Origin: Luminiphilus sp.
GTDB lineage: Bacteria; Planctomycetota; UBA1135; UBA2386
Length of the DNA: 40,327 bases
Assembly (NCBI GenBank): GCA_041236755.1
Contig: JBERSB010000309.1
Span: 1-40,327, forward strand
Direction of reading: 5' to 3'
Shown: piece after piece, positions 6,844 through 31,793 of the stretch
How the letters are laid out: the number at the start of each line of letters is the position of its first letter
Numbering within the stretch: position 1 is the first letter of the stretch
Translations under genes and position numbers: made by a program
Notes under the pieces: model-generated
Seen by the model: the letters and a program-made list of their open reading frames with translations, nothing else
What the model was told of the DNA's origin: nothing
The model's database searches: none

Positions 6844-6852
6844 GGGATCGTC

Positions 6853-6872: not shown

Positions 6873-6897
6873 GCTGGACGGACCGCTCTCGGCTGCC

Positions 6898-7656: not shown

Positions 7657-7794
7657 CGGGGCATCTTGTCGGAGGCAGGCGGGTTGCGCCAGCCCGGGAT
7701 CGGTCGCTGCGCGCGGCCCCGCGACATTCTCCGCCCCTGAACCGCGACCCGTCGGGTATCGTTGTGCCGCCTGACCGTGCGCGCCTCCTCCCTG

Positions 7795-8481: not shown

Positions 8482-8541
8482 CCGGGCGCGCGCCGCGGGG
8501 CGCAGCATGAGGCAGGGCGGCGAGTAGGCGCGCCACAGCAT

Positions 8542-9744: not shown

Positions 9745-9820
9745 GGGCGGGCTTTCGGGCACGGAACGCGGTCAAGGTCGCGCGCGGAACGCCCCGATAC
9801 AAGGGCTGGAGCGCAACCAC

Positions 9821-10693
9821 ATGGCAGAGAGCACGAGTTCATCGACGAACATCTTGGCCTTGGTCAACAGCACGATCGACCTGCCGACGATGCCAGAGGT
9901 GCTGGTCAAGCTGAACACGGTGATGACCGACCCGGAGACCTCGGCCGAGGACGTCGCCAAGATCGTCTCGGTCGACCCTGCGGTCGCGACCAACATCCTG
10001 CGCATCGTGAACTCGGCCTACTACGGCCTGCAGGTGCGCGTCTCCTCGGTGAGCCTCGCGATCTCCGTGATGGGCTTCAGCATGACCAAGAAGGTCGCGC
10101 TGAAGGCAGCCGTCTTCTCGGCGCTCGGCAAGCGTCGGCAGAAGGTCGCGCACTTCGACCCGTCGTCGTTCTGGAAGCACGCCGTGTTCGTCGGCGTCGC
10201 GGCGCGCGTGCTCGCAGATGCCTCGGGTCGCTTCGACGACATGCACCCCGAGGACGCCTACATCGCGGGGCTGCTGCACGACATCGGCAAGATCATCCTG
10301 ATGGAGAAGGCCGAGGACCGCTACGGCAAGGCGCTGCGCAAGTCTGTCGAGCAGGGCCGGCCCGAGGTCGAGGTCGAGTTCGAGGAGCTGGGCTTCACGC
10401 ACGCCGACGTCGGCTCGGTGCTGGCGATCAAGTGGTCGCTGCCCGAGGACCTCGCCATCGCGATCCGCTACCACCACGCGCCGGGGCGCGATCCGTACCA
10501 CCGCTCGCTGAGCTCGCTCATCCACCTCGCCGACCAGCTGGCGTGGCGCGCGCAGACGCCTTCGACGGTGGGCACCACGCCCGCGTCGCTGGACCACGAC
10601 GTCTACGAGGCGGTCGGCCTGTCGCCCGAGCAGGTCGAAGAGCTGTTGCCGCAGATCCACCAGCAGTTCAGCGACTCCGAGCTGCCCTGGTAG
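9821..10693 (+). CDS. HDOD domain-containing signalling protein
   Basis: Start ATG 9821 (MAESTSSS). LPTMPEVLVKLNTVMTDPETSAEDVAKIVSVDPAVATNILRIVNSAYYGL and the HD motif LLHDIGKIIL are present. Confidence 0.88.
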   Translation: MAESTSSSTNILALVNSTIDLPTMPEVLVKLNTVMTDPETSAEDVAKIVSVDPAVATNILRIVNSAYYGLQVRVSSVSLAISVMGFSMTKKVALKAAVFSALGKRRQKVAHFDPSSFWKHAVFVGVAARVLADASGRFDDMHPEDAYIAGLLHDIGKIILMEKAEDRYGKALRKSVEQGRPEVEVEFEELGFTHADVGSVLAIKWSLPEDLAIAIRYHHAPGRDPYHRSLSSLIHLADQLAWRAQTPSTVGTTPASLDHDVYEAVGLSPEQVEELLPQIHQQFSDSELPW

Positions 10694-10799
10694 CGGAGCA
10701 TCGCCCGGCGCAGCAGGCCTGCTCGCGGGCCGAGGATGCAGGCCGCGGCGGCGTCGCTGTTGAGACAGTGGGCGGTTCCGGCTAGGAACGTCGACGACC

Positions 10800-11588
10800 A
10801 TGAGCACGACGCGACCACTGCTGGGAGTCATCCACCTCGGCGCCTCGCCCTCGGCGGCGCGCCACCGCTCCGTGCGCGAGGTCATGAGCACGGCGCTGGC
10901 CGACGCCGAGGCCTTCGCGAGCGCGGGCTTCGACGGGTTGGTCGTCGAGAACTTCGGCGACGCGCCGTTCCACCGCGGCACATACGACGACCCGGTGCCG
11001 CCCGACGTCGTCGCGAGCGTCGCGGTGGCGGCCGACCGCGTGGCGCGCGCCACCGGGCTGCCGATCGGCGTCAACTGCCTGCGCAACGACGGCGTCGCAG
11101 CGTTCGGCGTCGCCGCCGTCACTTCGGCGCGCTGGGTGCGCGTCAACGTGTTGACCGGCGCCTACGTGACCGACCAAGGCGTCATCGCGGGCGAGGCGGC
11201 GCGCCTCGCGGCCTACCGGCGGCAGCTGCGCACCGACGCGCTGTTGCTCGCCGACCTGTTGGTCAAGCACGCAGCGCCGCTCGCGGCGTTCGACCTCGCG
11301 ACCGGCGCCAAGGATCTCGCCGAGCGCTCGGGCGCCGACGGCGTGGTGCTGTCGGGCGCCAGGACCGGCCGGCCCGTGGACGTCGCGCAGCTGGACGCGG
11401 TCCGGGACGCCGTAGGGGCGTTCCCGATCTGGATCGGCTCGGGCCTCGACGCGGACAACGCAGCGGAGCTGTGGCCGCGCTGCGACGGGGCGATCGTCGG
11501 CACCTGGTGCAAGGAGGACGGCGACGCGGCCCGGCCCGTGGACGTCGAGCGCGCGCGGCGGCTGCGGGCGGCGTGTCCGCCGGAGTAA
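10800..11588 (+). CDS. BtpA/SgcQ family TIM-barrel protein
   Basis: LLGVIHLGASP...DAEAFASAGFDGLVVENFGDAPF, GVNCLRND and WIGSGL match the remembered BtpA family pattern. Confidence 0.8.
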   Translation: MSTTRPLLGVIHLGASPSAARHRSVREVMSTALADAEAFASAGFDGLVVENFGDAPFHRGTYDDPVPPDVVASVAVAADRVARATGLPIGVNCLRNDGVAAFGVAAVTSARWVRVNVLTGAYVTDQGVIAGEAARLAAYRRQLRTDALLLADLLVKHAAPLAAFDLATGAKDLAERSGADGVVLSGARTGRPVDVAQLDAVRDAVGAFPIWIGSGLDADNAAELWPRCDGAIVGTWCKEDGDAARPVDVERARRLRAACPPE

Positions 11589-11621
11589 GGGCGCGGGCGG
11601 CCACGGGCCGATAACAGAGGC

Positions 11622-12635
11622 GTGAAGGTCCTGTTCCTGACTCCCGCGCCGACGAAGCTGCACATGGGCGGCTTTGCGACCGTCGCGCGCTACCGCGACG
11701 GCCTGCAGCAGCTGGGCCACGTCTGCGAGCTCTACGGACCTTCGGGCGAAGGCGGACACGAGCAGCCGCTGGCCGCTGCGATCGGCCGGTTCCAGCCGGA
11801 CATCGTGCACGCGCACGACGCCAGGCGCTGCGGCGTGCAGCTGCTCGGCTCTCGCACGCCGTGGGTGATCTCGATCGCCGGCGAGGACCTGCACCAGGAC
11901 GTGCTCGACAGCAAGCACGGCCCGATCGTCTGCGAGGTCATGCGACGCGCGCACCGCGTGCTCGTCCCGAGCGAGCACGCCGCGAGCCTCGTCGCGGAGC
12001 GCGTGCCCGGCGCGGCCGACAAGGTCGACGTCGTCGCGCGCGCCGCCACCGCGCTGCCGACCGACGGCACGGACCTGCGCCGGTCGCTCGGCATCCAGCG
12101 CCAGCGCTTCCTGGTGTTCTTGCCGGGCGGCATCCGGCCCGTGAAGGGGCAGCACCGCGCGATCTCGGCGATCCCGAAGCTGCGCGCAGCCGGCGTCGAC
12201 ATCGAGATGATCATCGCCGGCGCCTCGCAGGACGAGGCCTACGCCGCGCGCGTGCGGGCCGAGGCCGACGACACGCCCGGCGTGCGCGTGATGCCCTCGC
12301 TGGCGCGCGAGCGCATGGGCGCTGCCTACGCGGACTCCGACGTCGTGCTCAACACCTCGCTCTCCGAGGGTGCCGCGCCGACGATCCTGGAGGCCGGCAT
12401 GCTCGGCCGGCCGGTGATCGCGTCGGACATCCCGGGCAACCGCGCGCTCATCCGGCACAACGAGACGGGGCTGCTGTTCGCCGACGAAAAGAGCATGGCC
12501 AAGCAGATCCTGGCCCTCTACCGCAACCGCACGGCCGCGGGCACGCTGGGCGTGCGCGTGCGGGAGGACTTCATGCGCCGCTTCAGCGCGGACCGTGAGG
12601 TCGCGGGGCTGCTGTCGTCCTACGCCGCCGCCTGA
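11622..12635 (+). CDS. Glycosyltransferase family 1 (GT-B)
   Basis: GTG start preceded by the agagg SD at 11616-11620. MKVLFLTPAP...GGFATV is at the N-terminus, and the C-terminal motif is SLSEGAAPTILEAGMLGRPVIASDIPGNRALIRHNETGLLF. Confidence 0.85.
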   Translation: MKVLFLTPAPTKLHMGGFATVARYRDGLQQLGHVCELYGPSGEGGHEQPLAAAIGRFQPDIVHAHDARRCGVQLLGSRTPWVISIAGEDLHQDVLDSKHGPIVCEVMRRAHRVLVPSEHAASLVAERVPGAADKVDVVARAATALPTDGTDLRRSLGIQRQRFLVFLPGGIRPVKGQHRAISAIPKLRAAGVDIEMIIAGASQDEAYAARVRAEADDTPGVRVMPSLARERMGAAYADSDVVLNTSLSEGAAPTILEAGMLGRPVIASDIPGNRALIRHNETGLLFADEKSMAKQILALYRNRTAAGTLGVRVREDFMRRFSADREVAGLLSSYAAA

Positions 12636-12638
12636 GGT

Positions 12639-14243
12639 CTACCCGGGCAGCTGCTGCGGCGCGTCCGGCTCGGCGTCCTGCCGTCCGCTTTCTTGCCGTC
12701 CGGTTTCCTGGCGATCAGCCTCCGCGTCTGCTTGGCGGGCTGCCTCCCGGTCTTCTTCCGTGCAGAACGCGTCGTAAAGCGCGTAGAGCCGCTCCGCCTG
12801 CCACTTCAGGGCCTCGGTTACCTGCGCGGTGATCTTGTCGCGCGTCGTGGACCGGACGCGCGGAGCGCGCGCCTTGTGCACGAGTTCGTAGCGCGCGTCG
12901 CCGTCGAGGGCCTCGAGCTCGCGACCGGACGGATCCCCGAGCAGGAGCGCGGAGACCTCGGTGAGGTCGTCGTAGCGAGACAGCTCGGGGTCGAACACGC
13001 CGGACTCGAACAGCGCCCGCATGTCGAGCACGTCCTGGCCCAGCAGCATGCGCACGGCGCCTTTCTCGTCGGGGAGGGAGTCGAGCAGGCCGCGGAGGTC
13101 GCGCAGGTGCGCCTCGTCCCAGACGAGTGCGGTGCCGCCCATCTCGAGGTGGCGCGACAGCCCCCGCACGAACGCGCCGCGCGGGTCGTCGCGGTCGACC
13201 TGTGCGAACGACTTGGACTCGACGCGGCCGTCCTCGTGCACGGTCTTGACCGCCCACGCGTACGGCGTGCGCTGCCAGGGCTTTTGTAGGTCGAAGCGCG
13301 GCAGCGGGTCGGTGACGGACGTCATCGCGACGAAGTGCAGCGGGCGGTCGCATTCGGCGAGGTCCTCGGAGACGAAGTCCTCGACGATGCGCTCGCCGCG
13401 CTCGTGGCACTGCAGCGTGCGCCGCTGGCGGAACGTCAGGCCCTCGTGGTCGAGCGGCACGTCGGACAGCTCTTGGAACCCCGCAGCGACCAGCTCGGTC
13501 TCCTGGGCGCGCGAGATCTCGGGCAGCTGGTGGAGCGGCCGCTCCGGCGCGCCCTCGGCGCACGCGGCCATGTGCGGGCACGCGAACGGGCTCTGGCAGA
13601 ACGTGCCCATCGTGACCTCGGGCGCTGTGTCTCTCGCGGCTGCCTTCCGCGACAGGCCCAGCTTGCGCACGACGTTGGGCAGCTGCTTCTGCACCTTCTG
13701 TGTGACGTCGGAGCTGCGCATCAGCTCCATCGGCGGGTAGTCCTCGCCGGCGGTGTGCGCGTAGTTCGGGTTCACGTGCAGCAGGTAGGCGCGCTGCATC
13801 TCGAGACCTTCGTGGGCGAGCACGGTCGCCTGCAGCGCGAGGTCGTTGACGTAGCGGTGCTTCACCTTGGTGCCCGACTTGATCTCGAACAGGTCGACGC
13901 GCTTGTCCTTGTGCACGACGAGGATGTCGCAGCGGACCTCGACGCCGTCGGCGACGAACGCCGCGTCGAACAGCACCGGCGCGCCGTCGGCCATCGCCTT
14001 GGCGGTCTCCTCGGCAGCGGCCGTGATGTTGTCGGCTGCGATGGTGACGGCCATCGGGAACGCCGTCCGTGCCAGCGCGCGCAGCTCGTCGCCGACGCGC
14101 GACATCTCCTGCCGGCGGGCGGTGCTCGGCTCGGGCCCGGGCTGGTGGTAGTCGAGCCAGAGGCGCTTCGGGCACTGCTGGCCGGCCTCGAAGAGGTGCT
14201 TGTCCAGGTTGCGCTGCGCCTTCGGCTTTGCGGACTTCTTCAA
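12639..14243 (-). CDS. DUF2779-like protein: PD-(D/E)XK-type nuclease N-terminal half with a Cys cluster
   Basis: 534 aa. It has QQCPKRLWLDY near the N-terminus, a D...E-x-K motif (VDLFEIKSGTK), and FCQSPFACPHMAAC (C-x5-C-x5-C). The C-terminal half is conserved-looking but unassigned. The acidic tail carries a 5-aa repeat, DRQET-GRQES-GRQDA. Confidence 0.7.
   Translation of the reverse strand: MKKSAKPKAQRNLDKHLFEAGQQCPKRLWLDYHQPGPEPSTARRQEMSRVGDELRALARTAFPMAVTIAADNITAAAEETAKAMADGAPVLFDAAFVADGVEVRCDILVVHKDKRVDLFEIKSGTKVKHRYVNDLALQATVLAHEGLEMQRAYLLHVNPNYAHTAGEDYPPMELMRSSDVTQKVQKQLPNVVRKLGLSRKAAARDTAPEVTMGTFCQSPFACPHMAACAEGAPERPLHQLPEISRAQETELVAAGFQELSDVPLDHEGLTFRQRRTLQCHERGERIVEDFVSEDLAECDRPLHFVAMTSVTDPLPRFDLQKPWQRTPYAWAVKTVHEDGRVESKSFAQVDRDDPRGAFVRGLSRHLEMGGTALVWDEAHLRDLRGLLDSLPDEKGAVRMLLGQDVLDMRALFESGVFDPELSRYDDLTEVSALLLGDPSGRELEALDGDARYELVHKARAPRVRSTTRDKITAQVTEALKWQAERLYALYDAFCTEEDREAARQADAEADRQETGRQESGRQDAEPDAPQQLPG
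12678..12707. repeat. 15-nt tandem repeat inside the 3' end of the DUF2779-like CDS
   Basis: ctgccgtccgctttc (12678-12692) and ttgccgtccggtttc (12693-12707), with 13/15 identity. They encode ETGRQ/ESGRQ on the minus strand, about 40 nt from the stop at 12639. Confidence 0.8.
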
Positions 14244-14304
14244 AATGTTGGTCGGCCCCTCCCTGGAGCGGCTCCGCCCAAGTCTACCGTCGGCCCGCTG
14301 CGGC

Positions 14305-15072
14305 TCAACGGCGCACGCGGGTGTGTCGGTAGAGCAGGACCAAGATCAGGCCGACGATTCCGCCGACCAGGATCGGGGTCCAGAGCCGCTCCCCGAGCGA
14401 CTGCGGCGGCTCGGCCACCCGCGCGAACGTCAGGGTCGAGAGCCAGCGGTCGAACTCGGGCCGCCACCGCGAGAAGTCGTCGGGAGCGGCCGCGAACGAC
14501 AGCGTGATCTGCTGCTTGGCGGTGGGGGCGTGCACGTCCAGGCTGACCCTGGTGGCGGCGGGCGCTCTGGGCGTGGTCGTGCGCGTTGCCACGATGCACT
14601 CCACGCCCTGGGTCCCGAGGCGCTCGAGGTGGACGTCGGTCAGCTCGTGCGAGGCGTCGTTCTGTTCGCCGTGCTCGCGCCAGAGCTGCCGGAGGGTGTC
14701 CGCGTAGTCGTCGCCGACGTGCCACTCGTCCCGCTGCTCGAACACGTAGAGCCACGGTCCGGAGAAGTCGCCCTGGAGCCACTGGTCGACCGGCCCGACA
14801 CCGTAGTAGCCGCGCGGCGAGGCCAGGAGCAGCACCGGCGGCGCGTCCGGGTGGTCGGCGAGCCGCGCCGCCTCGCCAGGCGCGATCTGCCGCCAGCCCG
14901 CGGGCAGGTCGAGCTGGAACGTGCGGTTGTAGTTGCGGAACGTCGCCGTCGGCGCGTCCGCGGAGCTCGCGGCGGGAGCCTCGCGCACGGCGGCGGGCGA
15001 GGTCTGGGCGCGCGGCGCGGTCGTCGTCAGGAGCGCGGCCGCGGCGAGCGCGGCGAGGAGGCGTTCACGCAT
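14305..15072 (-). CDS. Hypothetical exported protein with a C-terminal membrane anchor
   Basis: This is the in-frame ATG at 15072 within the spurious 951-aa ORF. MRERLLAALAAAALLTTTAPRAQT is a signal peptide, and the C-terminal TM is LWTPILVGGIVGLILVLLY followed by RHTRVRR. Codon usage matches neighbouring genes, and no family was recognised. Confidence 0.65.
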   Translation of the reverse strand: MRERLLAALAAAALLTTTAPRAQTSPAAVREAPAASSADAPTATFRNYNRTFQLDLPAGWRQIAPGEAARLADHPDAPPVLLLASPRGYYGVGPVDQWLQGDFSGPWLYVFEQRDEWHVGDDYADTLRQLWREHGEQNDASHELTDVHLERLGTQGVECIVATRTTTPRAPAATRVSLDVHAPTAKQQITLSFAAAPDDFSRWRPEFDRWLSTLTFARVAEPPQSLGERLWTPILVGGIVGLILVLLYRHTRVRR

Positions 15073-15131
15073 CGGGGCATCATCGCGACACCCCGCGCTT
15101 CGGCGCAACCGTGCTCTCGTTGCCGCGCGAG

Positions 15132-16997
15132 CTACTCCTCGGTCGAGATCGGCACGGGGCACTCCCACAGCTCGGCCAGCGCGCGGATCAGGTCGACCTC
15201 GTCCGGGTCGAGGTGGCCGTCGTGCGCGGCGACCTCGGCGCAGGCGTGGATCAGGTTGCGCTTGCCGAACGGCGAGACGCGCTCGAGGCCGTCGATCGCG
15301 TGGTCGAGCTCCTGCGGCGTCGCGCGGTCGGCTTCGACGAGGTCGGCTGCGGGCATGCTCAGCACGGCGCAGCCGCGCGCGAACGCGGCGCGGGCCTCGT
15401 CCGCGTCGCCGCCCGCACCCGCGTGCGCGATCACCGACAGCACCAGCGCGGCGTCGTCGGTGTGGTCCATCATCGCCTCGGGCCGCCCGCGCCGCCGCGG
15501 CGACCGCTCGACGTCGGGCACGTGGCGCTCGAGGGTCTTGAGCAGCGCGAACTCGAACGGCGACAGGTGGTCGTCGGCCAGCGCCAGCGCGCGCGCGCGT
15601 CGGCGCAGCGCGCGGCGGTCCTCTCGGCTCAGGCGGCGCAGCGCGGGCATGGCCAGCTCCATCAGCGGCAGCCGCATCGTGCGCGGCAGCGCTGCGACGT
15701 CGCGGTAGAACGCCTGCGCGTCGTGCTGCAGGACGCCGTCCGTGCCGTCGAGCAGCTGGAGCTGCCGCTGACGCTCGGCCGGGTCGGCGTCGAGCAGCAG
15801 CGCGTAGACCAGCGCTGCTGCGCGCTGCGGCTCGTGGGCCGCGACGCTGAGGTCGAGCGGGAGCTCGGCGAGCAGGGCGCGGGCCGCGGCGACGTGGCGC
15901 GGCTGCGGATCCCCGACCGACCTGGTCAGGCCCGCGGGCGTCGCGCCGGCGAAGCCTGCAGCGCCCGCGGCGAGCTGCGGCGCGGGCGTGGCTTCGACCG
16001 CCTGCGTCAGCGACTCGCTGCGCGCCGCGTTCTTCAAGAAGCCCGGGAGCACGCGCTCGACCCGCTGCTCGATGGGGGGGTGGGTCGCCATCGCGCCGCT
16101 CGCCCCCGCCATCGCGGACGCGAACATCAGGTGCCCGGCCTCTTCGGCGTGGGGGCTCTCGAGCTTGCCCGTGAGGCCGCCGATCTTGGCGAGCGCCATG
16201 CCGATCCCCTTGGGGTTGCGCGTGTATTGGACCGCGCTGGCGTCGGCGAGGAACTCGCGCTGGCGCGAGACCGCGGACTGGATGAGCCGCGCGAACAGCA
16301 CGCCGACGTAGCCGACCACGATCAGCACGATGCCGAACAGCGCGACCTGCCCGCCCTCGCGGCGGTTGCGGCCGCCGGTGTGCGCCAGCACGCGGCCGAC
16401 GACCGCGATGCACATGATGCCGAACAGCGTGCCCATCAGGCGGATGTTGAGCCGCATGTCGCCGTGGAAGACGTGGCTGAACTCGTGCGCGATCACGCCC
16501 TGCAGCTCGTCGCGGCTGAACGACTCGAGGCTGCCGCGCGTGACGGCGACGGCGGCGTCCTTGGTCGACCAGCCCGCGGCGAACGCGTTGATCCCGTGCT
16601 CGCGGTCGAGGACGTAGACGTCGGGGACCGGCACGCCGGACGCGATCGCCATCTCCTCGACGACGTTCATCAGCATCCGCTCCTGGTCGTCGTCGGTGTG
16701 CGGGTCGACGCGTCGGCCGCCCATCATCTCGGCGACCGCTGCGCCGCCGCCCCGCAGCTGCGCCGTCTTGAAGAGCATGGCGCCGCTGACGACCGCGCTC
16801 ACGCCGACGGCGACGACGCCCAGCACGGGCCAGTCGACCACGTCCGGTTGCCCGGTCTTCGAGACCAGCAGCAGCGCTTTCGCGGCCGCGTAGATCAGCA
16901 GGATGATGCAGACGACCGCGGCGACGAACAGCCACACGAGGCGGCCCGACGCCTTGCGCGCCTGCTCCTGGTGCCCGAAGAAGTCCATGCCGCTCAC
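15132..16997 (-). CDS. M48-family (HtpX-like) zinc metallopeptidase with a long cytoplasmic C-terminal TerB-like region
   Basis: Two N-terminal TM helices, HEFSH (HExxH), and two further TM segments. The C-terminal ~320 aa carries two TerB/DjlA-N-like segments (ALADDHLSPFEFALLKTL and EVAAHDGHLDPDEVDLIRALAEL). The GTG start at 16997 overlaps the upstream stop (GTGA); an alternative ATG is at 16988. Confidence 0.85.
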   Translation of the reverse strand: MSGMDFFGHQEQARKASGRLVWLFVAAVVCIILLIYAAAKALLLVSKTGQPDVVDWPVLGVVAVGVSAVVSGAMLFKTAQLRGGGAAVAEMMGGRRVDPHTDDDQERMLMNVVEEMAIASGVPVPDVYVLDREHGINAFAAGWSTKDAAVAVTRGSLESFSRDELQGVIAHEFSHVFHGDMRLNIRLMGTLFGIMCIAVVGRVLAHTGGRNRREGGQVALFGIVLIVVGYVGVLFARLIQSAVSRQREFLADASAVQYTRNPKGIGMALAKIGGLTGKLESPHAEEAGHLMFASAMAGASGAMATHPPIEQRVERVLPGFLKNAARSESLTQAVEATPAPQLAAGAAGFAGATPAGLTRSVGDPQPRHVAAARALLAELPLDLSVAAHEPQRAAALVYALLLDADPAERQRQLQLLDGTDGVLQHDAQAFYRDVAALPRTMRLPLMELAMPALRRLSREDRRALRRRARALALADDHLSPFEFALLKTLERHVPDVERSPRRRGRPEAMMDHTDDAALVLSVIAHAGAGGDADEARAAFARGCAVLSMPAADLVEADRATPQELDHAIDGLERVSPFGKRNLIHACAEVAAHDGHLDPDEVDLIRALAELWECPVPISTEE

Positions 16998-17734: not shown

Positions 17735-18226
17735 ATGACCGAGATCCGCAGAGCCCGCCCAGGCGACGAGCCGCACATCGCGCGGTTCATCCGCGACCTC
17801 GCGCGCTACGAGAAGCTCGAACACGAGCTCGACCTGAGCGAGGAGCGGCTGCACGAGCACCTGTTCGGCGATAGCCCGGTCTGCGCGGCCTTCCTCGCCG
17901 AGGACAGAGACCAGCCGATCGGCTTCGCGCTCTACTACGTCAGCTACTCGACGTTCTGGTGCAGGCCCTACCTCTACCTGGAAGACCTCTACGTCGACCC
18001 GCCGCACCGCGGCCGCGGCTGTGGCCTCGCGCTGCTCAAGCGCCTCGCCCAGGAGGCCGTCGAGCGCGGCTACCCGCGGATGGACTGGAACGTGCTCGAC
18101 TGGAACCAGCTGGCGATCGACTTCTACGAGCGCCAGGGGGCCAGGCTGCTGCCCGACTGGCGGACCTGCCGGCTCGAGGGCGACGCGCTGCGCGCGATGG
18201 CGGACGGTCAGTTGCCGGCGGTCTGA
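17735..18226 (+). CDS. GNAT family N-acetyltransferase (diamine/spermidine acetyltransferase-like)
   Basis: Start ATG 17735 (MTEIRRARPGDE). The acetyl-CoA motif is VDPPHRGRGCGLALLKRLAQEA, with C-terminal AIDFYERQGA. Confidence 0.88.
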   Translation: MTEIRRARPGDEPHIARFIRDLARYEKLEHELDLSEERLHEHLFGDSPVCAAFLAEDRDQPIGFALYYVSYSTFWCRPYLYLEDLYVDPPHRGRGCGLALLKRLAQEAVERGYPRMDWNVLDWNQLAIDFYERQGARLLPDWRTCRLEGDALRAMADGQLPAV

Positions 18227-19455
18227 TTGAGCCAGTCGAGCCAGGGCTCCTCAAGGCGCTCGATCGGCGTCCCCATGTGCCGATCGAAGGCGGTGCTGCT
18301 GTCACCGAGCCGGTCGCCGAGCGAGGCGCGCACGTAGTCGAGGAAGCGCGGCCGCGTCCCGAGCGGGTTGTCGGCGTCGAGCAGCCACGCCGTGAACATC
18401 GTCGCGGCGGCCCAGTTGGTCTGCGTCGCGGTGTTGTCCGTCAGGTAGAAGCCGCCGTACATCGGCAGGTGCACGAGGTGGGTCAGCCGGTAGCCGCGAC
18501 CGAGCGCGCGAAGCGCGGTCAGGTCGTCGCCGCGGGGAGCGCCCGGTGCTGCGAACCCTGCCTCGCCCTGCATGACCCGCTGCATCTGCATGCCCAGGCC
18601 GACCTCGAGCCACGCGCACACGCGGTCGCGGTTGTTCTGCAGGTTGGCGTCGCCGATCAGCGTGCGGTAGAGCAGGCCCTGCGCGCCGACGAAGAACAGC
18701 CCCTCGGGCCGCAAAGGAGCAGCACCTGCGTAGAACGTGCGCGCCTCGTCCGCGTGCGGCGGCGGCTCGAAGTAGGGGCGCGGCCGGAAGCCCCACTTGG
18801 GGAACTCCGCGCCGCGTCGGTAGGCGCGCACGTCGATCGGCGCGAGCACCTCGCGCAGCTCGAGCTCGGCGCCGAGCTGCGCGAACCAGACGACGGCGAG
18901 GTGCTCGAGGTCGAACAGCGCGCGCACGTTGGCCAGGAGCCCCGCGTCGCACGTGAGCGTGAACCGCTCGCCCTGCAGCAGCAGCGGGCGGTCTTCGAGC
19001 GCGGCCTCGAGCTTCTCCCGCGTCAGCCACTTGCGCCCCGACGGCCACAGCCACTTGCCGTTGCGCAGCCGGTGGCCGAGCCGCTCGTGCATCGCCTCGT
19101 CGTCGTCGTCCAGCAGGACCAGCTCGAGCGCCTGCAGCTGCGCGAGGTGCTGCAGGTCGCGGTCGGTCGCCCAGTCGACGAGGTAGCGCAGCGCGCGACG
19201 CGAACGCCGGTGGCGCAGCCGCCGCTCGAAGAACCCCGCGACGTCTCCGGCCACCGTGCGCAGCTCGGCGACGTCCTCGCGCGCCACCCGCGTGCGCTTG
19301 CCGCCGGTCTGCACCAGCAGTTCGTCCTGGGCGTACGGCGTCGCCACCCGGCCGACGACGACCTGGCCGTTGTGCAGCGTGACCCGGTCGCGCACGTCGT
19401 CCTGCCCGGCGCACGTGGCCGCGAGCAGGATCGAGGTCGCGAGCGCGCGATTCAT
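18208..19455 (-). CDS. Hypothetical secreted protein
   Basis: Start ATG 19455 (MNRALATSILLAATCAGQ, signal-like). It is 415 aa with gene-like codon usage and no family recognised. Its 3' end overlaps the convergent GNAT gene by 19 nt. Confidence 0.6.
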   Translation of the reverse strand: MNRALATSILLAATCAGQDDVRDRVTLHNGQVVVGRVATPYAQDELLVQTGGKRTRVAREDVAELRTVAGDVAGFFERRLRHRRSRRALRYLVDWATDRDLQHLAQLQALELVLLDDDDEAMHERLGHRLRNGKWLWPSGRKWLTREKLEAALEDRPLLLQGERFTLTCDAGLLANVRALFDLEHLAVVWFAQLGAELELREVLAPIDVRAYRRGAEFPKWGFRPRPYFEPPPHADEARTFYAGAAPLRPEGLFFVGAQGLLYRTLIGDANLQNNRDRVCAWLEVGLGMQMQRVMQGEAGFAAPGAPRGDDLTALRALGRGYRLTHLVHLPMYGGFYLTDNTATQTNWAAATMFTAWLLDADNPLGTRPRFLDYVRASLGDRLGDSSTAFDRHMGTPIERLEEPWLDWLNQTAGN

Positions 19456-19492
19456 GAAAGGATTGTAGCGCGCCGGGCGTTGCATCCCCGAG

Positions 19493-20173
19493 ATGCTGCA
19501 GATGCGCTGGCAAGACCTGCTGTTCCTGCACTGGCCCGTGGAGCCTGCCGCGGTGCGCCCGCACCTTCCTGAGGGCCTGACGCTCGACACCTTCGACGGC
19601 CGGGCGTGGCTCGGCGTCGTGCCGTTCACGATGGCGTCGACCCGCTTCCGCTGGTTGCCGCCGATGCCGACCGCGCGCTGCTTCCCCGAGTGCAACCTGC
19701 GCACCTACGTGCGCTGCGGCGACCGCGCGGGCGTGTGGTTCTTCAGCCTGGACGCGCACAGCCGCCTCGCGGTCGAAGGCGCGCGGATCGGCTTCGGGCT
19801 GCCCTACTTCGTGGCCGACATGGCGAGCCAGAGAGACGGCGACCGCATCGTCTACCGCAGCCGCCGCGTCGACCGCCGGGGACCGCCCGCGACCTTCGAG
19901 GGCAGCTGGCGTGCCGCAGGGGCGTGGCGCACCGCCGCGCCGGGGTCGCTCGAGCACTTCCTCGTCGAGCGCTACAGCCTGTTCGCGCTGCGCCGCGGCC
20001 GCCTCGTGCGCGGCGACGTGGCGCACCCGCCGTGGCAGCTCGCAGCAGCGGACGTCGAGCTCCAGCGCTGCGACATGGCGCGCCTGCTGGACCTGCAGCT
20101 CCGAGGTCCGCCGGTCTCGGCGCTCGCGACGCAGCCGATCGACGTCGAGGCGGCGAGGCCGTTGCCGGTGTAG
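19493..20173 (+). CDS. DUF2071 (YqjF-like) family protein
   Basis: WQDLLFLHWPVEPAAVRPHLPEGLTLDTFDGRAWLGVVPFTM and CNLRTYV match the remembered DUF2071/YqjF N-terminal signature. Confidence 0.75.
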   Translation: MLQMRWQDLLFLHWPVEPAAVRPHLPEGLTLDTFDGRAWLGVVPFTMASTRFRWLPPMPTARCFPECNLRTYVRCGDRAGVWFFSLDAHSRLAVEGARIGFGLPYFVADMASQRDGDRIVYRSRRVDRRGPPATFEGSWRAAGAWRTAAPGSLEHFLVERYSLFALRRGRLVRGDVAHPPWQLAAADVELQRCDMARLLDLQLRGPPVSALATQPIDVEAARPLPV

Positions 20174-20326: not shown

Positions 20327-20581
20327 ATGAGCGCAGACGAAGTGCGACAGGACCTGCTGGCCTGGATCGTCGCGAACGCCACGCAGCCGTGCGCGATCGA
20401 GGACATCCACTCCGACGTGAGCATGTGCGACGCGGGCTACATCGACTCGATCCGCGGCGCGGACCTGCTCGCGCACATCGAGCGCCGCTACGCGGTGCGG
20501 GTCGAGGAGGTCGAGCTGGTCGGCAGGCTCCAGACGCTGGACGAGCTGGTGGCGCACGTCGCAGGAGGCAGTCATGAGTGA
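20327..20581 (+). CDS. Acyl/peptidyl carrier protein, DltC-like
   Basis: 84 aa. The candidate phosphopantetheine Ser41 lies in DAGYIDSIRGADLLAHIERRY (codon 20447-20449), similar to the DltC LLDSMGTV helix-2 context. The stop overlaps the next start by 8 nt. Confidence 0.8.
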   Translation: MSADEVRQDLLAWIVANATQPCAIEDIHSDVSMCDAGYIDSIRGADLLAHIERRYAVRVEEVELVGRLQTLDELVAHVAGGSHE

Positions 20582-21593
20582 ACTCGCGAAGCACGCGTTC
20601 GAGGTCGGGATGCCTCACATGGTCACCGACCAGCTCTCCGAAGTGGAGCTGCTGAAGCTCGTCGGCGACTTCCAGTGGCGGCAGATCGCGGCCTCGCTGG
20701 GCCGCTCGACCAAGGACCTGCAGAACAGCGCGGGCGACCGCCTCTACGCGTCGTTCATCAACATCGAGCTAGACTTCGGCTCGGGTGACGGCGCGGACAT
20801 CGGGCGCTTCGAGGAAGGGGACCGCGTCGAGGTCGCCGGGACCACCCGCTTCTACGGCCGCCAGTTCGTCGAGGGCTGGAGCGTGCTCGACCGCGCGGCG
20901 CTGGACGAAGACAGGGTCCGCACCGTGTCCTCGCGCGCGGACCTGGACGGCGTCGGCCGGCCTTGGGTCTACATGACCAACGCGTTCGTCGGCCGCGTCT
21001 CGGGCAACCTCCGCCTCAAGACCTACGCGCCCGACGGCGTGCAGGACGGCGCGGTCGCCACCACCGACGACAAGCCCGCAGGCATCACGGCGCACGAAGA
21101 CGCGCTGCAGCGCGGCCTGCAGCTGCCCGCGGGCGCGCGCCCGCTGCCGTGCACCGACGACGGGCCCGTGCTCTACCAGGTGCTCCCCGAGAGCGACCTG
21201 AACGGCGCCGGCCTGCTCTACTTCGCGCGCTACGTCGCGATGATGAACTACGCCGAGCGCGTGCAGAGCCTGGACCGCATGGCGCCGCCCATGTCGGCGC
21301 AGCTGAGCCGGCACCTCGCGACCAGGCGCCGCAGCCTCTACTACTTCGCCAACGCGCCGGCGAACGAGCGCGTGCGCGTGTTCTGCACGCCCGCGTTCGT
21401 GCCCGCAGGCAGCGCGGGCTCGGACCCGCTGTCCACGGACTTCGGCAGCGTCGTGCATCGCCACGAGCTCTACCGGGACTCGGACGGCGCTCTGATGGCG
21501 ATGTCGCTCGTCGAGAAGGCGCTGCGCGTCCCCAACCGCCTGAAGGGCACGCTCGCCGAGGTGCGGCGCATGCTGGCGCGGCTCGGCTGCTGA
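20574..21593 (+). CDS. Double hot-dog-like protein, LnmK / Pnap_2097-type putative acyltransferase-decarboxylase (assignment by recollection)
   Basis: 339 aa with an AGGAGG SD at 20563-20568. The N-terminal half is GMPHMVTDQLSEVELLKLVGDFQWRQIA. The C-terminal half, YQVLPESDLNGAGLLYFARYVAMMNYAERV, is a classic hot-dog thioesterase-type D-x-N-x-x-G...Y motif. Confidence 0.6.
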   Translation: MSELAKHAFEVGMPHMVTDQLSEVELLKLVGDFQWRQIAASLGRSTKDLQNSAGDRLYASFINIELDFGSGDGADIGRFEEGDRVEVAGTTRFYGRQFVEGWSVLDRAALDEDRVRTVSSRADLDGVGRPWVYMTNAFVGRVSGNLRLKTYAPDGVQDGAVATTDDKPAGITAHEDALQRGLQLPAGARPLPCTDDGPVLYQVLPESDLNGAGLLYFARYVAMMNYAERVQSLDRMAPPMSAQLSRHLATRRRSLYYFANAPANERVRVFCTPAFVPAGSAGSDPLSTDFGSVVHRHELYRDSDGALMAMSLVEKALRVPNRLKGTLAEVRRMLARLGC

Positions 21594-21681
21594 GGGGCTC
21601 GGGCGCCGGCGACTGCGCGGTTGGCCGCCGAATGCGCTGGAGTCGCCCGCGCGGCGCCGCAGAATGGCGGCTGCCTGAGGG

Positions 21682-23088
21682 ATGCTGTTCTCCGAGCCAC
21701 TCTTCCTGTTCGGCTTCTTGCCGCTGGTGCTCTGCGTCTACTACGCCGCACCCGCGCGCGCGCGCATCGGGCTGCTCGCCGCCGCGAGCTACACGTTCTA
21801 CGGCTGGTGGGACTGGCGCTTCCTGCTGCTGATCGCGTTCACGACTGCAGTCGACTTCAGCTGCGCGCGCCTGATGGCCGGCCGCGAGCGCAAGCAGCGA
21901 CGGCCGCTCCTGCTGGTCTCGCTGGTCTCGAACCTGTCGCTGCTCGGCTTCTTCAAGTACTTCGGCCTGGGCGTCGAGACCGCGGACCACGTGGCGCGTT
22001 GGTTCGGCGGCGGCCTCGACCAGGGCCTGCTCGACTTCGAGGTCGTGCTGCCGGTCGGCATCTCGTTCTTCGTCTTCCAGAGCCTCTCCTACACGGTCGA
22101 CGTCTACCGGGACGCGGTGCAGCCGAGTCGGTCGCTGTTGGTCTACGCCTGCTACGTGTCGCTGTTCCCGCAGCTCGTCGCCGGGCCGATCGTGCGCTAC
22201 CGGCAGCTCGAGCAGGACCTGCGCGCGCCGGTGCTGACCGACGAGAAGCGCTACGCGGGCATCCAGCTGTTCTTGTTCGGGCTCGCCAAGAAGGTCGTCT
22301 TCGCGGACTCGCTCGCGCTGTTCGCCGAGGCGGTGTTCGACGCGCCCGAGATCGCGTCGCTGCCCGCCCCGCTCGTACTGGTCGGCGTGCTCGCCTACAC
22401 GTTCCAGATCTACTTCGACTTCTCGGGCTACTCGGACATGGCCGCCGGCATCGGCCACATGCTCGGCTTCCGCTTCCCGAAGAACTTCGACTCGCCCTAC
22501 AAGTCGGCGTCGATCACCGAGTTCTGGCAGCGCTGGCACATCTCGCTGTCGACGTGGCTGCGTGACTACCTGTTCCTGTCGCTCGGCGGCAACGCCCGGG
22601 GCGTGGCGCGAGCCTGCGCCAACGTCTTCGTGACGATGCTGCTCGGCGGGCTCTGGCACGGTGCCGGGTGGAACTTCGTGCTCTGGGGCGGCTATCACGG
22701 CGCGCTGCTCGCGATCGAGCGTGCGCTCGGCGCGCGCAACCCGCTGCTGCGGTTGCCCAAGGCCGCGCAGCGCGCGGTGTGCTTCCTGCTCGTCGCGTTC
22801 GGGCTGGTGTTCTTCCGCGCGGCGACGCTCGCCGACGGGGCAGCCGTGCTGTCGGCGTTGGGCAACTGGGACGTCGTCGGCCACGTGCCGCTGCTGCACG
22901 GGGTCTTCGGCCTCGAACACCTGGTCTTCGGCGCGAGCGCCTTGGTGGTCTTCTTCTGCAGGAACAGCTGGCAGGTCTCGACGCGGCCGTCGGTCGGCAA
23001 GACCGCAGGCCTGCTGCTGCTGCTCTTGGTGACGCTCGGCTTCCTGCTCGGCTCCACGAACCACCCGTTCCTCTACTTCCAGTTCTGA
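21682..23088 (+). CDS. Membrane-bound O-acyltransferase (MBOAT), DltB/AlgI family
   Basis: 468 aa and multi-TM. The N-terminus is MLFSEPLFLFGFLPLVL, with the signature ITEFWQRWHISLSTWLRDYLF and the conserved His region GGLWHGAGWNFVLWGGYHG. Confidence 0.92.
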   Translation: MLFSEPLFLFGFLPLVLCVYYAAPARARIGLLAAASYTFYGWWDWRFLLLIAFTTAVDFSCARLMAGRERKQRRPLLLVSLVSNLSLLGFFKYFGLGVETADHVARWFGGGLDQGLLDFEVVLPVGISFFVFQSLSYTVDVYRDAVQPSRSLLVYACYVSLFPQLVAGPIVRYRQLEQDLRAPVLTDEKRYAGIQLFLFGLAKKVVFADSLALFAEAVFDAPEIASLPAPLVLVGVLAYTFQIYFDFSGYSDMAAGIGHMLGFRFPKNFDSPYKSASITEFWQRWHISLSTWLRDYLFLSLGGNARGVARACANVFVTMLLGGLWHGAGWNFVLWGGYHGALLAIERALGARNPLLRLPKAAQRAVCFLLVAFGLVFFRAATLADGAAVLSALGNWDVVGHVPLLHGVFGLEHLVFGASALVVFFCRNSWQVSTRPSVGKTAGLLLLLLVTLGFLLGSTNHPFLYFQF

Positions 23089-24350
23089 TGAGCACGAACG
23101 ACCAGCACGACCCGCTGCACCGTCGCCACGTCCGGATCTTCGCCGGGGTGTGGCTCGTGCTGGTCGTGCTGTGGCTGTTGCCCGAGCCGGCTGCGTGGAG
23201 CGCGCCGCACCGCGGCTGGGAGACGGCCCTGGTCAGCGGCGTCGTCGACAAGCGGCGCGAGGTCGAGGTGCGCACGGCGCCGTTCGCGGCGCGCTCCAGC
23301 TGGGAGGGCACGGCGACCGGCGACCTCAGCTACCTGTTCGACCTGCCGCACCTCGACATGCCGCGGGCGCAGACGTTCCACACCGACGAGTACGGGTTCC
23401 GCAACCCGCCCGGAACGTCGGCGAGCAACCGCGACGTGGTCGTGGTGGGCAACTCGTGCGCGGTCGGCTCGTCGGTGCGGGACGAGGAGACCCTCTCCGG
23501 TCGGCTGCGCGCGCTCGGCGTCGCGGCGACGGACTCCGGCGGCTTCGGCCTGCAGGCGTTCCTCCAGGACCCGCGGTGGCAGCAGCCGCCGCCGAAGAGG
23601 GTCGTGCACTACGTCGACGAAGCGTCGCTGCTGCCCCCGCTGCTGCGCGAGGACCTGCCCGCGCTCGACCTGCCCGCGTTCGAGACCCGCGAGGAATACG
23701 AGGCTTGGATCCGTCGCGAGGTCGCGTCGCTCGACCGGACCGAGGAAGGGGTCGGCAGCGACGACCTGCCGTCGTGGCTCCGCTGGTTGCCGTCCAACGA
23801 CGCGCAGCAGCGGCTCAAGGCGGACCTCGCCGCGCGGCAGACCCTGATCGCAGGCGTGTTCGCGTACCTCGTGCCGCGCGCCGCGCACGCGCTCGGCTTG
23901 CCCACGTTCTTCGACGCGGCGCTCCTGCACGTCGACGAGCCGTCGGGGCAGGTCTTCTACCGGCCCTCGGCTGCGCGCTACCTGGATCCCGCGCAGCTGC
24001 AGCAGGCGCTGCAGAGCGTGGATCTGCTGGCCGGGACGTTCCAGGCCGCTGCCCAGCTGCTCGAGGCGCGCGGCACGCGGCTGATCGTGCTGGTGTGCCC
24101 CAACAAGGAGCTGGTCTACCGCGACCTGATCCCAGCGCTCGCCGACGTCGACACCGGCGCCGTGCTGACCCGGCTGGACGAGCGCTTGACCGCGCTCGGC
24201 GTGCCGCACGTCGACGCGTGGGCCGTGTGCCGGCGCGCGCGGCAGGAGCAGCCCGACGCGCCGCTGTTCTTCGGCGACGACACGCACCCGACGCCGCGCT
24301 TGCAGGACCTGCTGGCGCAGCAGGTGGCGGAGATCGTAGCCGGTAGGTAG
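23088..24350 (+). CDS. DltD-like membrane-anchored SGNH/GDSL-fold protein (extracytoplasmic acyl-transfer partner of the MBOAT)
   Basis: The ATG overlaps the MBOAT TGA (TGATG at 23086-23090). It has an N-terminal TM (IFAGVWLVLVVLWLL), a block-I-like VVVVGNSCAVGS, LIVLVCPNKELVYRD, and a C-terminal DxxH (FFGDDTHPTP). Confidence 0.7.
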   Translation: MSTNDQHDPLHRRHVRIFAGVWLVLVVLWLLPEPAAWSAPHRGWETALVSGVVDKRREVEVRTAPFAARSSWEGTATGDLSYLFDLPHLDMPRAQTFHTDEYGFRNPPGTSASNRDVVVVGNSCAVGSSVRDEETLSGRLRALGVAATDSGGFGLQAFLQDPRWQQPPPKRVVHYVDEASLLPPLLREDLPALDLPAFETREEYEAWIRREVASLDRTEEGVGSDDLPSWLRWLPSNDAQQRLKADLAARQTLIAGVFAYLVPRAAHALGLPTFFDAALLHVDEPSGQVFYRPSAARYLDPAQLQQALQSVDLLAGTFQAAAQLLEARGTRLIVLVCPNKELVYRDLIPALADVDTGAVLTRLDERLTALGVPHVDAWAVCRRARQEQPDAPLFFGDDTHPTPRLQDLLAQQVAEIVAGR

Positions 24351-29925: not shown

Positions 29926-30618
29926 CTAGGGCCGCTTCCCGCGCTCGTCGCTGCGCGCCGGTGCCAACTTGTACGGCGAGCGGTAGTGCTCGCGCAGCTG
30001 CTCCCAGCGCTCGCGCCACTCGGGCGGTCGGTCGTCGGACGCGACGCTCCGCTCGACCTCGTAGAAGTAGCTCTTGAAGGTCGTCGGCACGACGCCCGCC
30101 TGCTGCATCCGGCGGAGCGCAGGGCCGACGTTGGGCTCGTTGGAGAACACGCAGTCCTCCAGCAGGAACACCTCGAACCCCATCTCGAGCAGGCCCAGGC
30201 ACGACTGCAGCACACAGACATCGGTCTCCGCTCCGGCGACCACCAGCTGGTCGACGCCCATCTCGCGCAGCGCGGTGCGGATCGCCGGTTCGCGGCAGCA
30301 GTCGAAGGTTCGCTTCAGGTGGCGGACGCCGTGCTGCGGCCAGACGGCCTCGAGCCGCGCCGGCAGTTCGCCGTTGCGCTCCGTCGGCACCTCGAAGGTC
30401 GCGAGCACCGGCGCGCCGGTGATGCTCGCGTGCACCAACAGCTGCTCGAGGCGCTGCAGGACCGGCTCGGAGTCGCCGTGCATCATCGCGACGAAGCTCG
30501 GTTGCGCGTCGATGAGGACGACGCCTACGCGGCCGTGCTCCACGCGGAGCGGGCCGGGCGCTCTTGTGTGGCAGGCCGCGAGCGATGCCAGCAGCAGCGC
30601 GAGGATCGAGGTTCGCAT
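29926..30618 (-). CDS. Isochorismatase-family cysteine hydrolase with a lipoprotein signal peptide
   Basis: The lipobox is [26 protein letters not shown] and the catalytic-Cys context [14 protein letters not shown] are present. Confidence 0.8.
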
Positions 30619-30722
30619 CGGCCCGATCCTCGTCGCGGCGCAGCGGCGTGCAAGCGAGCGCTGCGATTTGGCCGCGCCGCGCGCTAAGCTGCGCAGAGCC
30701 TTCTGAGAGGCTCCGTAGCCAG

Positions 30723-31793
30723 ATGAACCGCACCTGCATCGTCCCCGTCTTCGCGGCGCTCGCCGCGCTCGCTGCGTCCCCCGCGCTCCTTTCGCAGCAG
30801 CTGCCGGACCCCGACGGCAAGCCCGCCGACATGAGCAAGCCGGTCCAGGTCTTCGTGATCATGGGCCAGTCCAACACGCTCGAGATGGGCAAGGTCAAGG
30901 GCGCTGACGGCTCGCTCGAGCACGCGGTCAAGGAGGAGGGGCTCTACCCCTTCATGGTCGACGACGCGGGCGCGTGGACGACGCGCCAGGACGTGCGCAA
31001 CGTGCACGTGATGGGCAGCGGCGGCCCCGGCAAGACACGCCAGATGCGCAACGACTGGCTCACGGTCTCTGGCAGGAAGGTCGGCATCGAGCAGGGCATC
31101 GGCCACCAGCTCGGCGCGGCGCTCGACGCGCCCGTATTGATCCTCAAGAGCTCGATCGGCAACCGCAGCCTCGGCTGGGACATCCTGCCGCCGGGCTCGG
31201 AGTCGTACGAGTTCACCGACCCCAAGGACGGTAAGACCTACGTCTACGCCGGCTTCGGCGAGAGCCCGGATCGGTGGGAGAAGGGCACCGAACCGAAGCC
31301 GATCGGTTGGTCGGCGGGCCTGCAATACAAGGGAGACGTCGCGCGCGCCAAGGCCGTGCTGAAGGACCTTGGCAAGTACTACCCCGGCGCGACCAAGTTC
31401 GAGGTCAAGGGCTTCCTGTGGTGGCAGGGCGACAAGGACCGCTACAACGCCGGCCACGCCCAGAAGTACGGCGAAAACCTCGGGCGGCTGGTGGCGGCGC
31501 TGCGCAAGGAGTTCGACGCGCCCGACGCCAAGTTCGTCTGCGCGACGCTCGGACAGACCGACAAGGACGCGGCCAAGGGCAACGAGAAGGCGATCCTCGA
31601 GGGCATGATGGCGCTCAGCGACGCCGCGCAGAACCCGGCGCTGAAGGGCTCGGTCGCGACGGTCTACACGCACCCGCTGAGCATGGGCTCGGCCTCCAAC
31701 GCCCACTACGGCGGCAACGCCAAGACCTACATGAACGTCGGCCTCGCCATGGGCGCGGCGATGGTCGAGCTGCTCCAGAAGGCGGGCCGCTAG
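30723..31793 (+). CDS. Secreted sialate O-acetylesterase-like carbohydrate esterase (DUF303/SGNH-like)
   Basis: Start ATG 30723 with a signal peptide (MNRTCIVPVFAALAALAASPA). Motifs are VFVIMGQSNTLEMG, ILKSSIGNRSL and FLWWQGDKD. Its stop overlaps the stop of the convergent sulfatase gene (CTAG at 31790-31793). Confidence 0.75.
   Translation: MNRTCIVPVFAALAALAASPALLSQQLPDPDGKPADMSKPVQVFVIMGQSNTLEMGKVKGADGSLEHAVKEEGLYPFMVDDAGAWTTRQDVRNVHVMGSGGPGKTRQMRNDWLTVSGRKVGIEQGIGHQLGAALDAPVLILKSSIGNRSLGWDILPPGSESYEFTDPKDGKTYVYAGFGESPDRWEKGTEPKPIGWSAGLQYKGDVARAKAVLKDLGKYYPGATKFEVKGFLWWQGDKDRYNAGHAQKYGENLGRLVAALRKEFDAPDAKFVCATLGQTDKDAAKGNEKAILEGMMALSDAAQNPALKGSVATVYTHPLSMGSASNAHYGGNAKTYMNVGLAMGAAMVELLQKAGR

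Follow-up and report, generated by a model that had tools for sequence, protein, structure and literature searches.

The stretch of DNA analysed here (the window) is a 40-kb contig with a GC content of 70%, and our subject is a cassette of four genes at positions 20327-24350 that might serve the O-acylation of an envelope polymer. The cassette encodes a small acyl carrier protein (ACP), an enzyme predicted to load it, an acyltransferase of the MBOAT family and a protein with SGNH-like features, in the following order:

20327..20581, forward strand (+): carrier gene, 84 amino acids, PF00550 match at E 6.6e-8
20574..21593, forward strand (+): loader gene, 339 amino acids, TIGR04098 match of 128.9 bits against a cut-off of 100
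21682..23088, forward strand (+): MBOAT gene, 468 amino acids, PF03062 match at E 2.3e-26
23088..24350, forward strand (+): SGNH-like gene, 420 amino acids, PF16822 match of 53.5 bits against a cut-off of 26.5

The carrier and loader genes overlap by 8 nucleotides (nt) and share ATGAGTGA, and an AGGAGG lies 5 nt ahead of the loader-gene ATG. A gap of 88 nt separates the loader gene from the MBOAT gene, which in turn overlaps the SGNH-like gene by 1 nt in a shared TGATG. The gene layout, with four co-directional and partly overlapping genes of 84, 339, 468 and 420 amino acids, had been claimed in an original prediction made for this DNA, and it holds as described. The same is true of the motifs it quoted, i.e., Ser41 in GYIDSIR of the carrier, His286 in RWHISLS of the MBOAT, and Ser123 in VVGNS and DDTH at residues 397-400 of the SGNH-like protein. 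The codon-position GC pattern of genuine genes is present in all four open reading frames (ORFs). Two of the starts deserve mention, as the SGNH-like gene begins at an ATG within a longer open frame (22668-24350), and the MBOAT starts 16 codons further upstream in one public annotation. The cassette is bordered on its upstream side by a DUF2071/acetoacetate decarboxylase (ADC)-like gene and on its downstream side by an exonuclease III gene in convergent orientation, and it is therefore a compact unit. A scan of the 70% GC window DNA for promoters and terminators was uninformative.

The loader has no Pfam match, and its assignment comes from other sources. The NCBIfam model TIGR04098, named "LnmK family bifunctional acyltransferase/decarboxylase", spans residues 10-310, and the score on the sister model TIGR04099, 83.8 bits, falls short of its cut-off of 125. 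By sequence, the loader matches the LnmK chains in the PDB (4hzo) at E 4e-4. Its identity to LnmK is about 20%. The LnmK nucleophile Tyr62 pairs with loader Tyr58 in the pairwise alignment (codon 20745-20747), and the residues around it, R56-L57-Y58-A59-S60 (RLYAS), are invariant across a family alignment of 27 sequences and retained in distant fused members with 25-30% identity. In the second half of the protein the motif DLNGAGLLYFARY begins at residue 208, and the pattern DxNGxGLLYFAxY is also invariant in the family alignment. An AlphaFold2 model built from the 27-sequence alignment reached a predicted local distance difference test (pLDDT) score of 89 and a predicted template modelling (pTM) score of 0.88. 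Its top seven fold matches in the PDB are all LnmK, with template modelling (TM) scores of 0.71-0.73 normalised to the query and 0.79-0.82 to the target (E 1e-16). The two hot-dog halves and the LnmK likeness that were originally proposed thus find agreement between the curated hidden Markov model (HMM), the PDB sequence match and the predicted fold, with the catalytic Tyr kept. Judged by this sequence and model evidence, the 20574-21593 product is a double hot-dog protein of the LnmK family, with a predicted function as acyl-CoA:ACP acyltransferase/decarboxylase. In LnmK, methylmalonyl-coenzyme A (CoA) is decarboxylated and the enolate deprotonates Tyr62, which accepts the propionyl group and hands it to the carrier LnmL (PMC11350588). 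The family is small, with 453 clusters at 50% identity found at E<=1e-3 and 29 at E<=1e-30 among 1.84 billion.

The carrier is predicted to bear its phosphopantetheine at Ser41, which is encoded at 20447-20449 and lies within D-x-G-Y-I-D-S. The conservation of this serine, on which the original prediction depended, extends to 56 of the 56 carriers that adjoin LnmK-like genes, with the motif D-x-G-Y-[ILV]-[DN]-S. The DltC and AcpP models give only weak matches below threshold, those to the DltC models being 14-16 bits against cut-offs of 52-68. By sequence, the protein is a dedicated acyl carrier of the PP-binding type, without membership of a specific ACP or DltC model.

The MBOAT matches PF03062 with 93.3 bits and aligns with the DltB structures 6bug/8jem at E 3e-29, including the His of RWHxSLS. 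By this alignment the catalytic residue is His286 in RWHISLS (codon 22537-22539). The C-terminus reads F463-L-Y465-F-Q-F468 and follows the pattern FxYxxF, with the Tyr encoded at 23074-23076. In the PatA study of Walker/Clarke, the C-terminal FxYxxF carries an acetyl-Tyr intermediate; the motif is found in bacterial MBOATs other than DltB, and in the Dlt system it is supplied by the DltX microprotein (PMC12148441). The protein fails the DltB equivalog TIGR04091 (168 bits against a cut-off of 375). Of the earlier label "DltB/AlgI-type", the AlgI part is therefore borne out by the FxYxxF end and the catalytic His, and the DltB part is not, as TIGR04091 stays below its cut-off and the shuttle motif is fused. 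From its motifs, the cassette MBOAT is of the PatA/AlgI type with a putative fused acyl-shuttle motif, and not of the DltB type. Both features are general among related cassettes: FxYxxF forms the C-terminus of each of the 19 cassette MBOATs that are complete, and the WHxSLS His motif is present in every one except that of L023, where a motif search gave no match.

The SGNH-like protein has an N-terminal transmembrane helix at about residues 9-29, preceded by basic residues. Its block I is formed by Ser123 in V-G-N-S (family pattern V-G-[ND]-S), and the AlgJ signature and block V by P338-N-K340 and D397-D398-T-H400. Ser123, P338-x-K340 and D397-D398-x-H400 are invariant in the family. The PF16822 (ALGX) match is confined to residues 317-418. 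When the family profile was compared with the PDB, it matched AlgJ (4o8v, E 6e-10), AlgX and Bacillus cereus PatB1, with the last ~100 residues of the family paired with the first ~100 of these proteins. Neither Pfam at E<=0.1 nor the profile comparison with the PDB gave a match to DltD. Word-index homologue searches with this protein gave only 6 and 14 matches, so that the AlphaFold2 model was built on 11 sequences (pLDDT 71). This model has only weak fold matches, with E 5.5e-3 at best, but SGNH/GDSL-fold proteins, PatB included, take all of the first 48 places. AlgJ/AlgX and DltD are missing from the top 50, and the PDB profile search told us more than the fold search.

In AlgJ and AlgX, which are SGNH-like enzymes with a circular permutation, D-x-H comes ahead of the Ser, and the signature is P-x-K ... 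D-x-H (PMC4148444). The cassette protein does not have this permuted order, since Ser123 is N-terminal and the chain stops 20 residues past His400, as in the canonical S...H arrangement. With the Ser first and the AlgJ signature at the C-terminus, the SGNH-like partner therefore appears to be permuted relative to AlgJ/AlgX/PatB1, back to the canonical SGNH order. The two parts are separated by a long helical insertion of low model confidence (residues ~189-274). The fourth protein had been described as having the DltD/SGNH layout, and the N-terminal anchor and Ser-first order agree with that description. Kinship with DltD does not, as the sequence groups the protein with AlgJ/AlgX/PatB1, and we regard it as a putative membrane-anchored extracytoplasmic SGNH-like acyltransferase of that group.

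Scans for loader homologues returned 48 loci from a set with one genome per species and 68 loci from metagenomes. Neighbourhoods were counted from six-frame ORFs searched with purpose-built HMMs, and loaders with at least 38% identity are here called the close subfamily. This subfamily covers 69 loci, many of them on contigs of 1-5 kb; the carrier adjoins the loader in 53 loci, and an MBOAT and/or SGNH-like gene is present in 25. Among the 15 loci whose flanks each measure 4 kb or more, the corresponding numbers are 10 and 7. The window has the order ACP-LnmK-MBOAT-SGNH, and gene order differs among loci:

L001 (Vicinamibacteria) and L126 (unlabelled, closely similar): MBOAT-ALGX-ACP-LnmK
L125/L007 (unclassified bacterium) and L015 (Planctomycetota): SGNH-MBOAT-ACP(-)-LnmK
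L012 (Myxococcota), L021 (Gemmatimonadota) and L025 (Planctomycetales): MBOAT-SGNH-ACP-LnmK
L013 (Thermodesulfobacteriota) and L091 (metagenome): ACP-LnmK, then MBOAT(-) and SGNH(+)

As labelled, the gene set occurs in at least seven diderm phyla, namely Vicinamibacteria, Myxococcota, Planctomycetota, Gemmatimonadota, Thermodesulfobacteriota, Acidobacteriota and Verrucomicrobiota. The loci of the last two are more distant and have an LnmK-like gene linked to an MBOAT. The co-occurrence in other genomes that was part of the original proposal is thus seen in these phyla and in shuffled orders, and this recurrence argues that the arrangement is not due to chance. Every cassette includes a neighbour with a transmembrane anchor, G-[SDN]-S and D-x-x-H, the version in L023 looking degenerate. 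These SGNH-like partners form two divergent subfamilies that are related via their C-terminal half (hhalign probability 89%). Pfam recognised almost nothing in the MBOAT-adjacent proteins of the other loci, and the SGNH assignment there was made by motif alignment and hhalign.

Several distant members, L034 and L027 among them, have the carrier as an N-terminal fusion to the loader. A larger variant is found in L117 (6237-8933) and L108 (1299-3995), where an 898-amino-acid ORF combines a large extra N-terminal region with a carrier domain and an LnmK-like domain, with a start that is perhaps over-extended. One Myxococcales metagenome-assembled genome (MAG) holds two LnmK-like paralogues (L004 and L020); one adjoins an MBOAT and an SGNH-like gene, and the other lies with a carrier and without an MBOAT on a 7-kb contig.

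Neighbouring genes give some clues to the cargo. In a Verrucomicrobiaceae MAG (L034) and a Prosthecobacter MAG (L027), both subunits of methylmalonyl-CoA mutase come after the fused carrier-loader, and MeaB also follows the mutase in the longer Verrucomicrobia locus. LnmK is specific for methylmalonyl-CoA (PMC11350588), and taken together with the mutase/MeaB neighbourhood this would indicate methylmalonyl-CoA as the substrate and hence a propionyl cargo. A tblastn search for the mutase near close-subfamily cassettes found it only in these two Verrucomicrobia loci. The clade of the window itself shows no such link, so that the cargo might also be acetyl, made from malonyl-CoA, or a group that is not decarboxylated, and the sequence clues speak only weakly for propionyl rather than acetyl. 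The L034 locus (5236-16705) runs from an MBOAT and an SGNH-like gene through the fused carrier-LnmK to the mutase beta and alpha subunits and MeaB, behind which stand a second MBOAT gene and genes for an ALGX-like protein and an AT3 acyltransferase. A single Verrucomicrobia carrier-loader may thus serve two MBOAT-SGNH pairs.

The acceptor is likely a surface glycan, to judge from the gene neighbourhoods. Wzz/GNVR, Bac_transf and Wzy_C genes and one for a tyrosine-kinase-like ATPase adjoin the L126 cassette, and Poly_export is near that of L001; L125 is near Ddl, DapB and UDPGP. The window itself has two glycosyltransferase family 4 (GT4) genes 8-12 kb upstream of the cassette (8542-9762, reverse strand, and 11622-12635, forward strand). 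A SASA-type carbohydrate O-acetylesterase gene (30564-31793, forward strand) lies 6 kb downstream. No ketosynthase (KS), HMG-CoA synthase (HCS) or polyketide synthase (PKS) gene was found in the window.

Collectively, these observations point to a four-gene operon for the carrier-protein-dependent O-acylation of an extracytoplasmic envelope polymer, a reading to which we assign a probability of about 0.6. In a first step, the LnmK-family enzyme would take methylmalonyl-CoA or malonyl-CoA, decarboxylate it and form an acyl-O-Tyr58 intermediate, from which propionyl or acetyl would pass to the carrier, onto the phosphopantetheine arm attached at Ser41. The acyl-S-carrier would then dock on the MBOAT from the cytoplasmic side, in the way DltC docks on DltB, and His286 would catalyse acyl transfer to Tyr465 of FLYFQF on the outer face, as in PatA. 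Finally, the anchored SGNH-like protein would use Ser123, in a triad with Asp397/398 and His400, to accept the acyl group, and esterify a hydroxyl of an envelope glycan, which might be exopolysaccharide, lipopolysaccharide (LPS)/O-antigen or peptidoglycan. The route suggested originally, from acyl-S-carrier through the MBOAT to envelope O-acylation, is supported as far as sequence goes, with the family assignment, the co-occurrence and the carrier Ser all in agreement.

Several points weigh against this reading. The support is wholly computational, the close relatives all come from uncultured MAGs or metagenomes, and the model of the SGNH-like protein is of moderate quality (pLDDT 71). A ligase may be encoded beyond the 40-kb window. 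The mutase link is limited to a clade whose members share about 30% identity with the window loader, and no polysaccharide cluster adjoins the cassette in the window, where the two GT4 genes and the SASA esterase are the only glycan-related genes. Additionally, a carrier is not chemically required, because PatA-type MBOATs use acetyl-CoA directly (PMC12148441). About half of the long-flank carrier-loader pairs are without an MBOAT within 8 kb. In L127 (9312-12324), a loader with 44% identity is accompanied by two carriers and a stand-alone ketosynthase next to a 1667-amino-acid type I PKS, without an MBOAT, and in L051 the carrier-loader pair lies beside a B12/radical-SAM gene.

These last observations also speak for the strongest rival explanation, in which the cassette consists of two independent neighbouring modules. 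One would be a PatAB/AlgIJ-like O-acetylation system running on acetyl-CoA, as PatA does with the same His/Tyr motifs (PMC12148441), and in the other the carrier-loader pair would prime an unrelated lipid or polyketide pathway. However, the genes are neighbours in seven phyla or more, in rearranged order and with tight spacing or overlaps. An MBOAT or SGNH-like gene is found in 7 of the 15 long-flank loci, against an expectation well below 1% that is rough and uncomputed and assumes a few copies of the family per genome. The MBOAT-linked loaders are spread over the whole loader clade in a neighbour-joining tree, and the window contains no KS or other consumer of acyl-ACP. We therefore consider two separate modules unlikely for the cassette. 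Nevertheless, the orphan pairs and the L127 PKS and L051 neighbourhoods show that the loader module is not exclusive to the MBOAT pathway. As judged from these neighbourhoods, the carrier-loader pair is a portable module predicted to supply short acyl-ACP, with the MBOAT pathway as one user among others, and, as L127 suggests, the subfamily of the window loader apparently also primes polyketide or lipid synthesis.

A second rival would make the double hot-dog protein a hydrolase, i.e., an acyl-ACP thioesterase or editing enzyme, with the carrier loaded by some other enzyme encoded elsewhere, for example FabD, an acyl-ACP synthetase or a ligase like DltA. The fold matches next in line after LnmK are indeed plant and bacterial acyl-ACP thioesterases of the FatA type (probability 1.0, TM-scores ~0.5/0.65), and with 40 kb of the genome visible, a ligase could lie elsewhere. 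Against this stand a TIGR04098 score above the curated cut-off, LnmK as clearly the best structural match, the invariance of the LnmK nucleophile Tyr and of DxNGxGLLYFAxY, and the existence of carrier-loader fusions. Furthermore, no AMP-binding or DltA-type ligase was found in the 40-kb window or in the five annotated cassette neighbourhoods, so that at this local scope the claimed lack of an adenylation enzyme at the cassette is confirmed. Together this leaves a hydrolase improbable. The least probable rival keeps the proposed pathway without decarboxylation, so that malonyl or methylmalonyl would be loaded and exported to give an anionic ester decoration; the ~20% identity to LnmK leaves room for it and sequence analysis does not separate acyltransfer from decarboxylation, but in LnmK decarboxylation comes first and yields the Tyr phenolate (PMC11350588), and the Tyr region is invariant here.

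Compared with known systems, the proposed four-gene pathway seems to resemble Dlt in its logic and PatAB/AlgIJ in its parts. As in Dlt, the acyl group would be donated by a small dedicated carrier that holds it as a thioester, and an MBOAT with the same catalytic His would relay the acyl group through a Tyr shuttle to an anchored SGNH-type Ser transferase and on to an envelope polymer (PMC12148441). The cassette differs from Dlt in that no adenylating ligase is nearby and that the predicted loader is a cofactor-free LnmK-type enzyme using acyl-CoA. Its predicted cargo is a short fatty acyl group, whereas that of Dlt is an amino acid, and its shuttle motif is fused to the MBOAT, whereas in Dlt it resides on the DltX microprotein. 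The carrier and the SGNH partner fall below the DltC and DltD models, and the hosts belong to diderm phyla. We place the cassette outside Dlt because no ligase, DltB equivalog, DltX or DltC/DltD family match was found.

With PatA/PatB, AlgI/AlgJ/AlgF/AlgX and WssH/WssI the cassette shares an MBOAT with a C-terminal FxYxxF and catalytic His, and a partner with the AlgJ signature P-x-K ... D-x-H and profile matches to the AlgJ/AlgX/PatB1 structures. Some cassettes also lie beside exopolysaccharide loci. However, those systems are without a carrier, and PatA runs on acetyl-CoA (PMC12148441), whereas the cassette operon encodes both a carrier and a loader. The catalytic residues also stand in a different order, as the Ser of the cassette partner precedes D-x-H and the permuted AlgJ/AlgX have H before S. 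An AlgF-like gene was not noticed in the annotated cassette neighbourhoods, in which no search aimed at AlgF was made.

The third comparison is with LnmK-LnmL of leinamycin and its myxovirescin, largimycin and fogacin homologues. Here the likeness lies in the same family, fold and Tyr nucleophile and in the pairing of the loader with a dedicated carrier, which is expected to be loaded by decarboxylative acyl transfer. In the polyketide pathways, propionyl-S-ACP goes to a beta-branching enzyme of the HMG-CoA-synthase type, whereas the partners in the cassette are an MBOAT and an SGNH-like transferase. By family and genomic context, the loader is a bona fide LnmK-family member with a predicted role outside polyketide synthesis. 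A fourth comparison is with MadA/MadB, hot-dog malonyl-ACP decarboxylases that provide acetyl-ACP to GlmU. There too, the product of a hot-dog decarboxylase is a short acyl-ACP, which donates its acyl group in the biosynthesis of the cell envelope (PMC8666670). MadA/MadB differ from the loader in being single hot-dog dimers (PF09500) that act on malonyl carried by the housekeeping ACP, with no acyltransferase step and with a cytoplasmic consumer.

Two further genes near the cassette were considered as components and rejected. The DUF2071 protein (19493-20173, forward strand; PF09844, E 1e-72) has a weak match to the acetoacetate-decarboxylase fold, and its gene sits 154 nt 5' of the carrier gene. 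This position is kept only in relatives with 84-87% identity (L054-L056), and not in the cassettes of other phyla. The nearness of a decarboxylase-fold gene to a predicted decarboxylating loader may or may not be accidental. The window, L001, L126 and L015 each have an S-adenosylmethionine (SAM) methyltransferase gene close to the cassette, but these are not orthologous, and only the L001 and L126 copies are related (65-70% identity). A 498-amino-acid ORF without a Pfam match (18208-19704, reverse strand) has counterparts called at 415-425 amino acids in L054-L056, where they stand between a GNAT acetyltransferase gene and the DUF2071 gene.

MBOAT/SGNH pathways other than Dlt are said to be without a carrier protein and to use acyl-CoA, and Dlt itself has a carrier loaded by an ATP-dependent ligase, plus DltX (PMC12148441). 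In the literature searched, we found no link of LnmK/TIGR04098, or of carrier/hot-dog proteins, to MBOAT/SGNH envelope acylation. The searches likewise returned no characterised system of the same composition, in keeping with the statement to that effect in the original prediction. The loader appears to be of an enzyme type that had previously been met only in antibiotic (polyketide) synthesis, and a carrier handover via such a loader appears to be unlike every studied system of this kind. One might go further and see a third design of MBOAT-SGNH envelope acylation, restricted to diderm environmental phyla, with an acyl-S-carrier derived from methylmalonyl-CoA by an LnmK-type decarboxylating transferase as donor, a dedicated route for O-propionylation (or another short, non-acetyl acylation) of surface glycans and a place for the LnmK family in envelope biology. 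This wider proposal is tentative, and we hold it to be somewhat short of an even chance.

If the proposed pathway is true, the cassette would break the division between Dlt and systems using acyl-CoA, by joining a PatA/AlgI-type MBOAT with its fused shuttle motif to a carrier-bound donor and an ATP-independent loader driven by decarboxylation and taken over from polyketide chemistry. It would offer a compact four-gene system to study how MBOATs choose between CoA-bound and carrier-bound donors. The genes would also provide a genetic marker for non-acetyl surface decorations in Planctomycetota, Myxococcota, Acidobacteriota, Gemmatimonadota and Verrucomicrobiota. For the small LnmK family, hitherto seen as a speciality of polyketide beta-branching, it would mean a wider biology.

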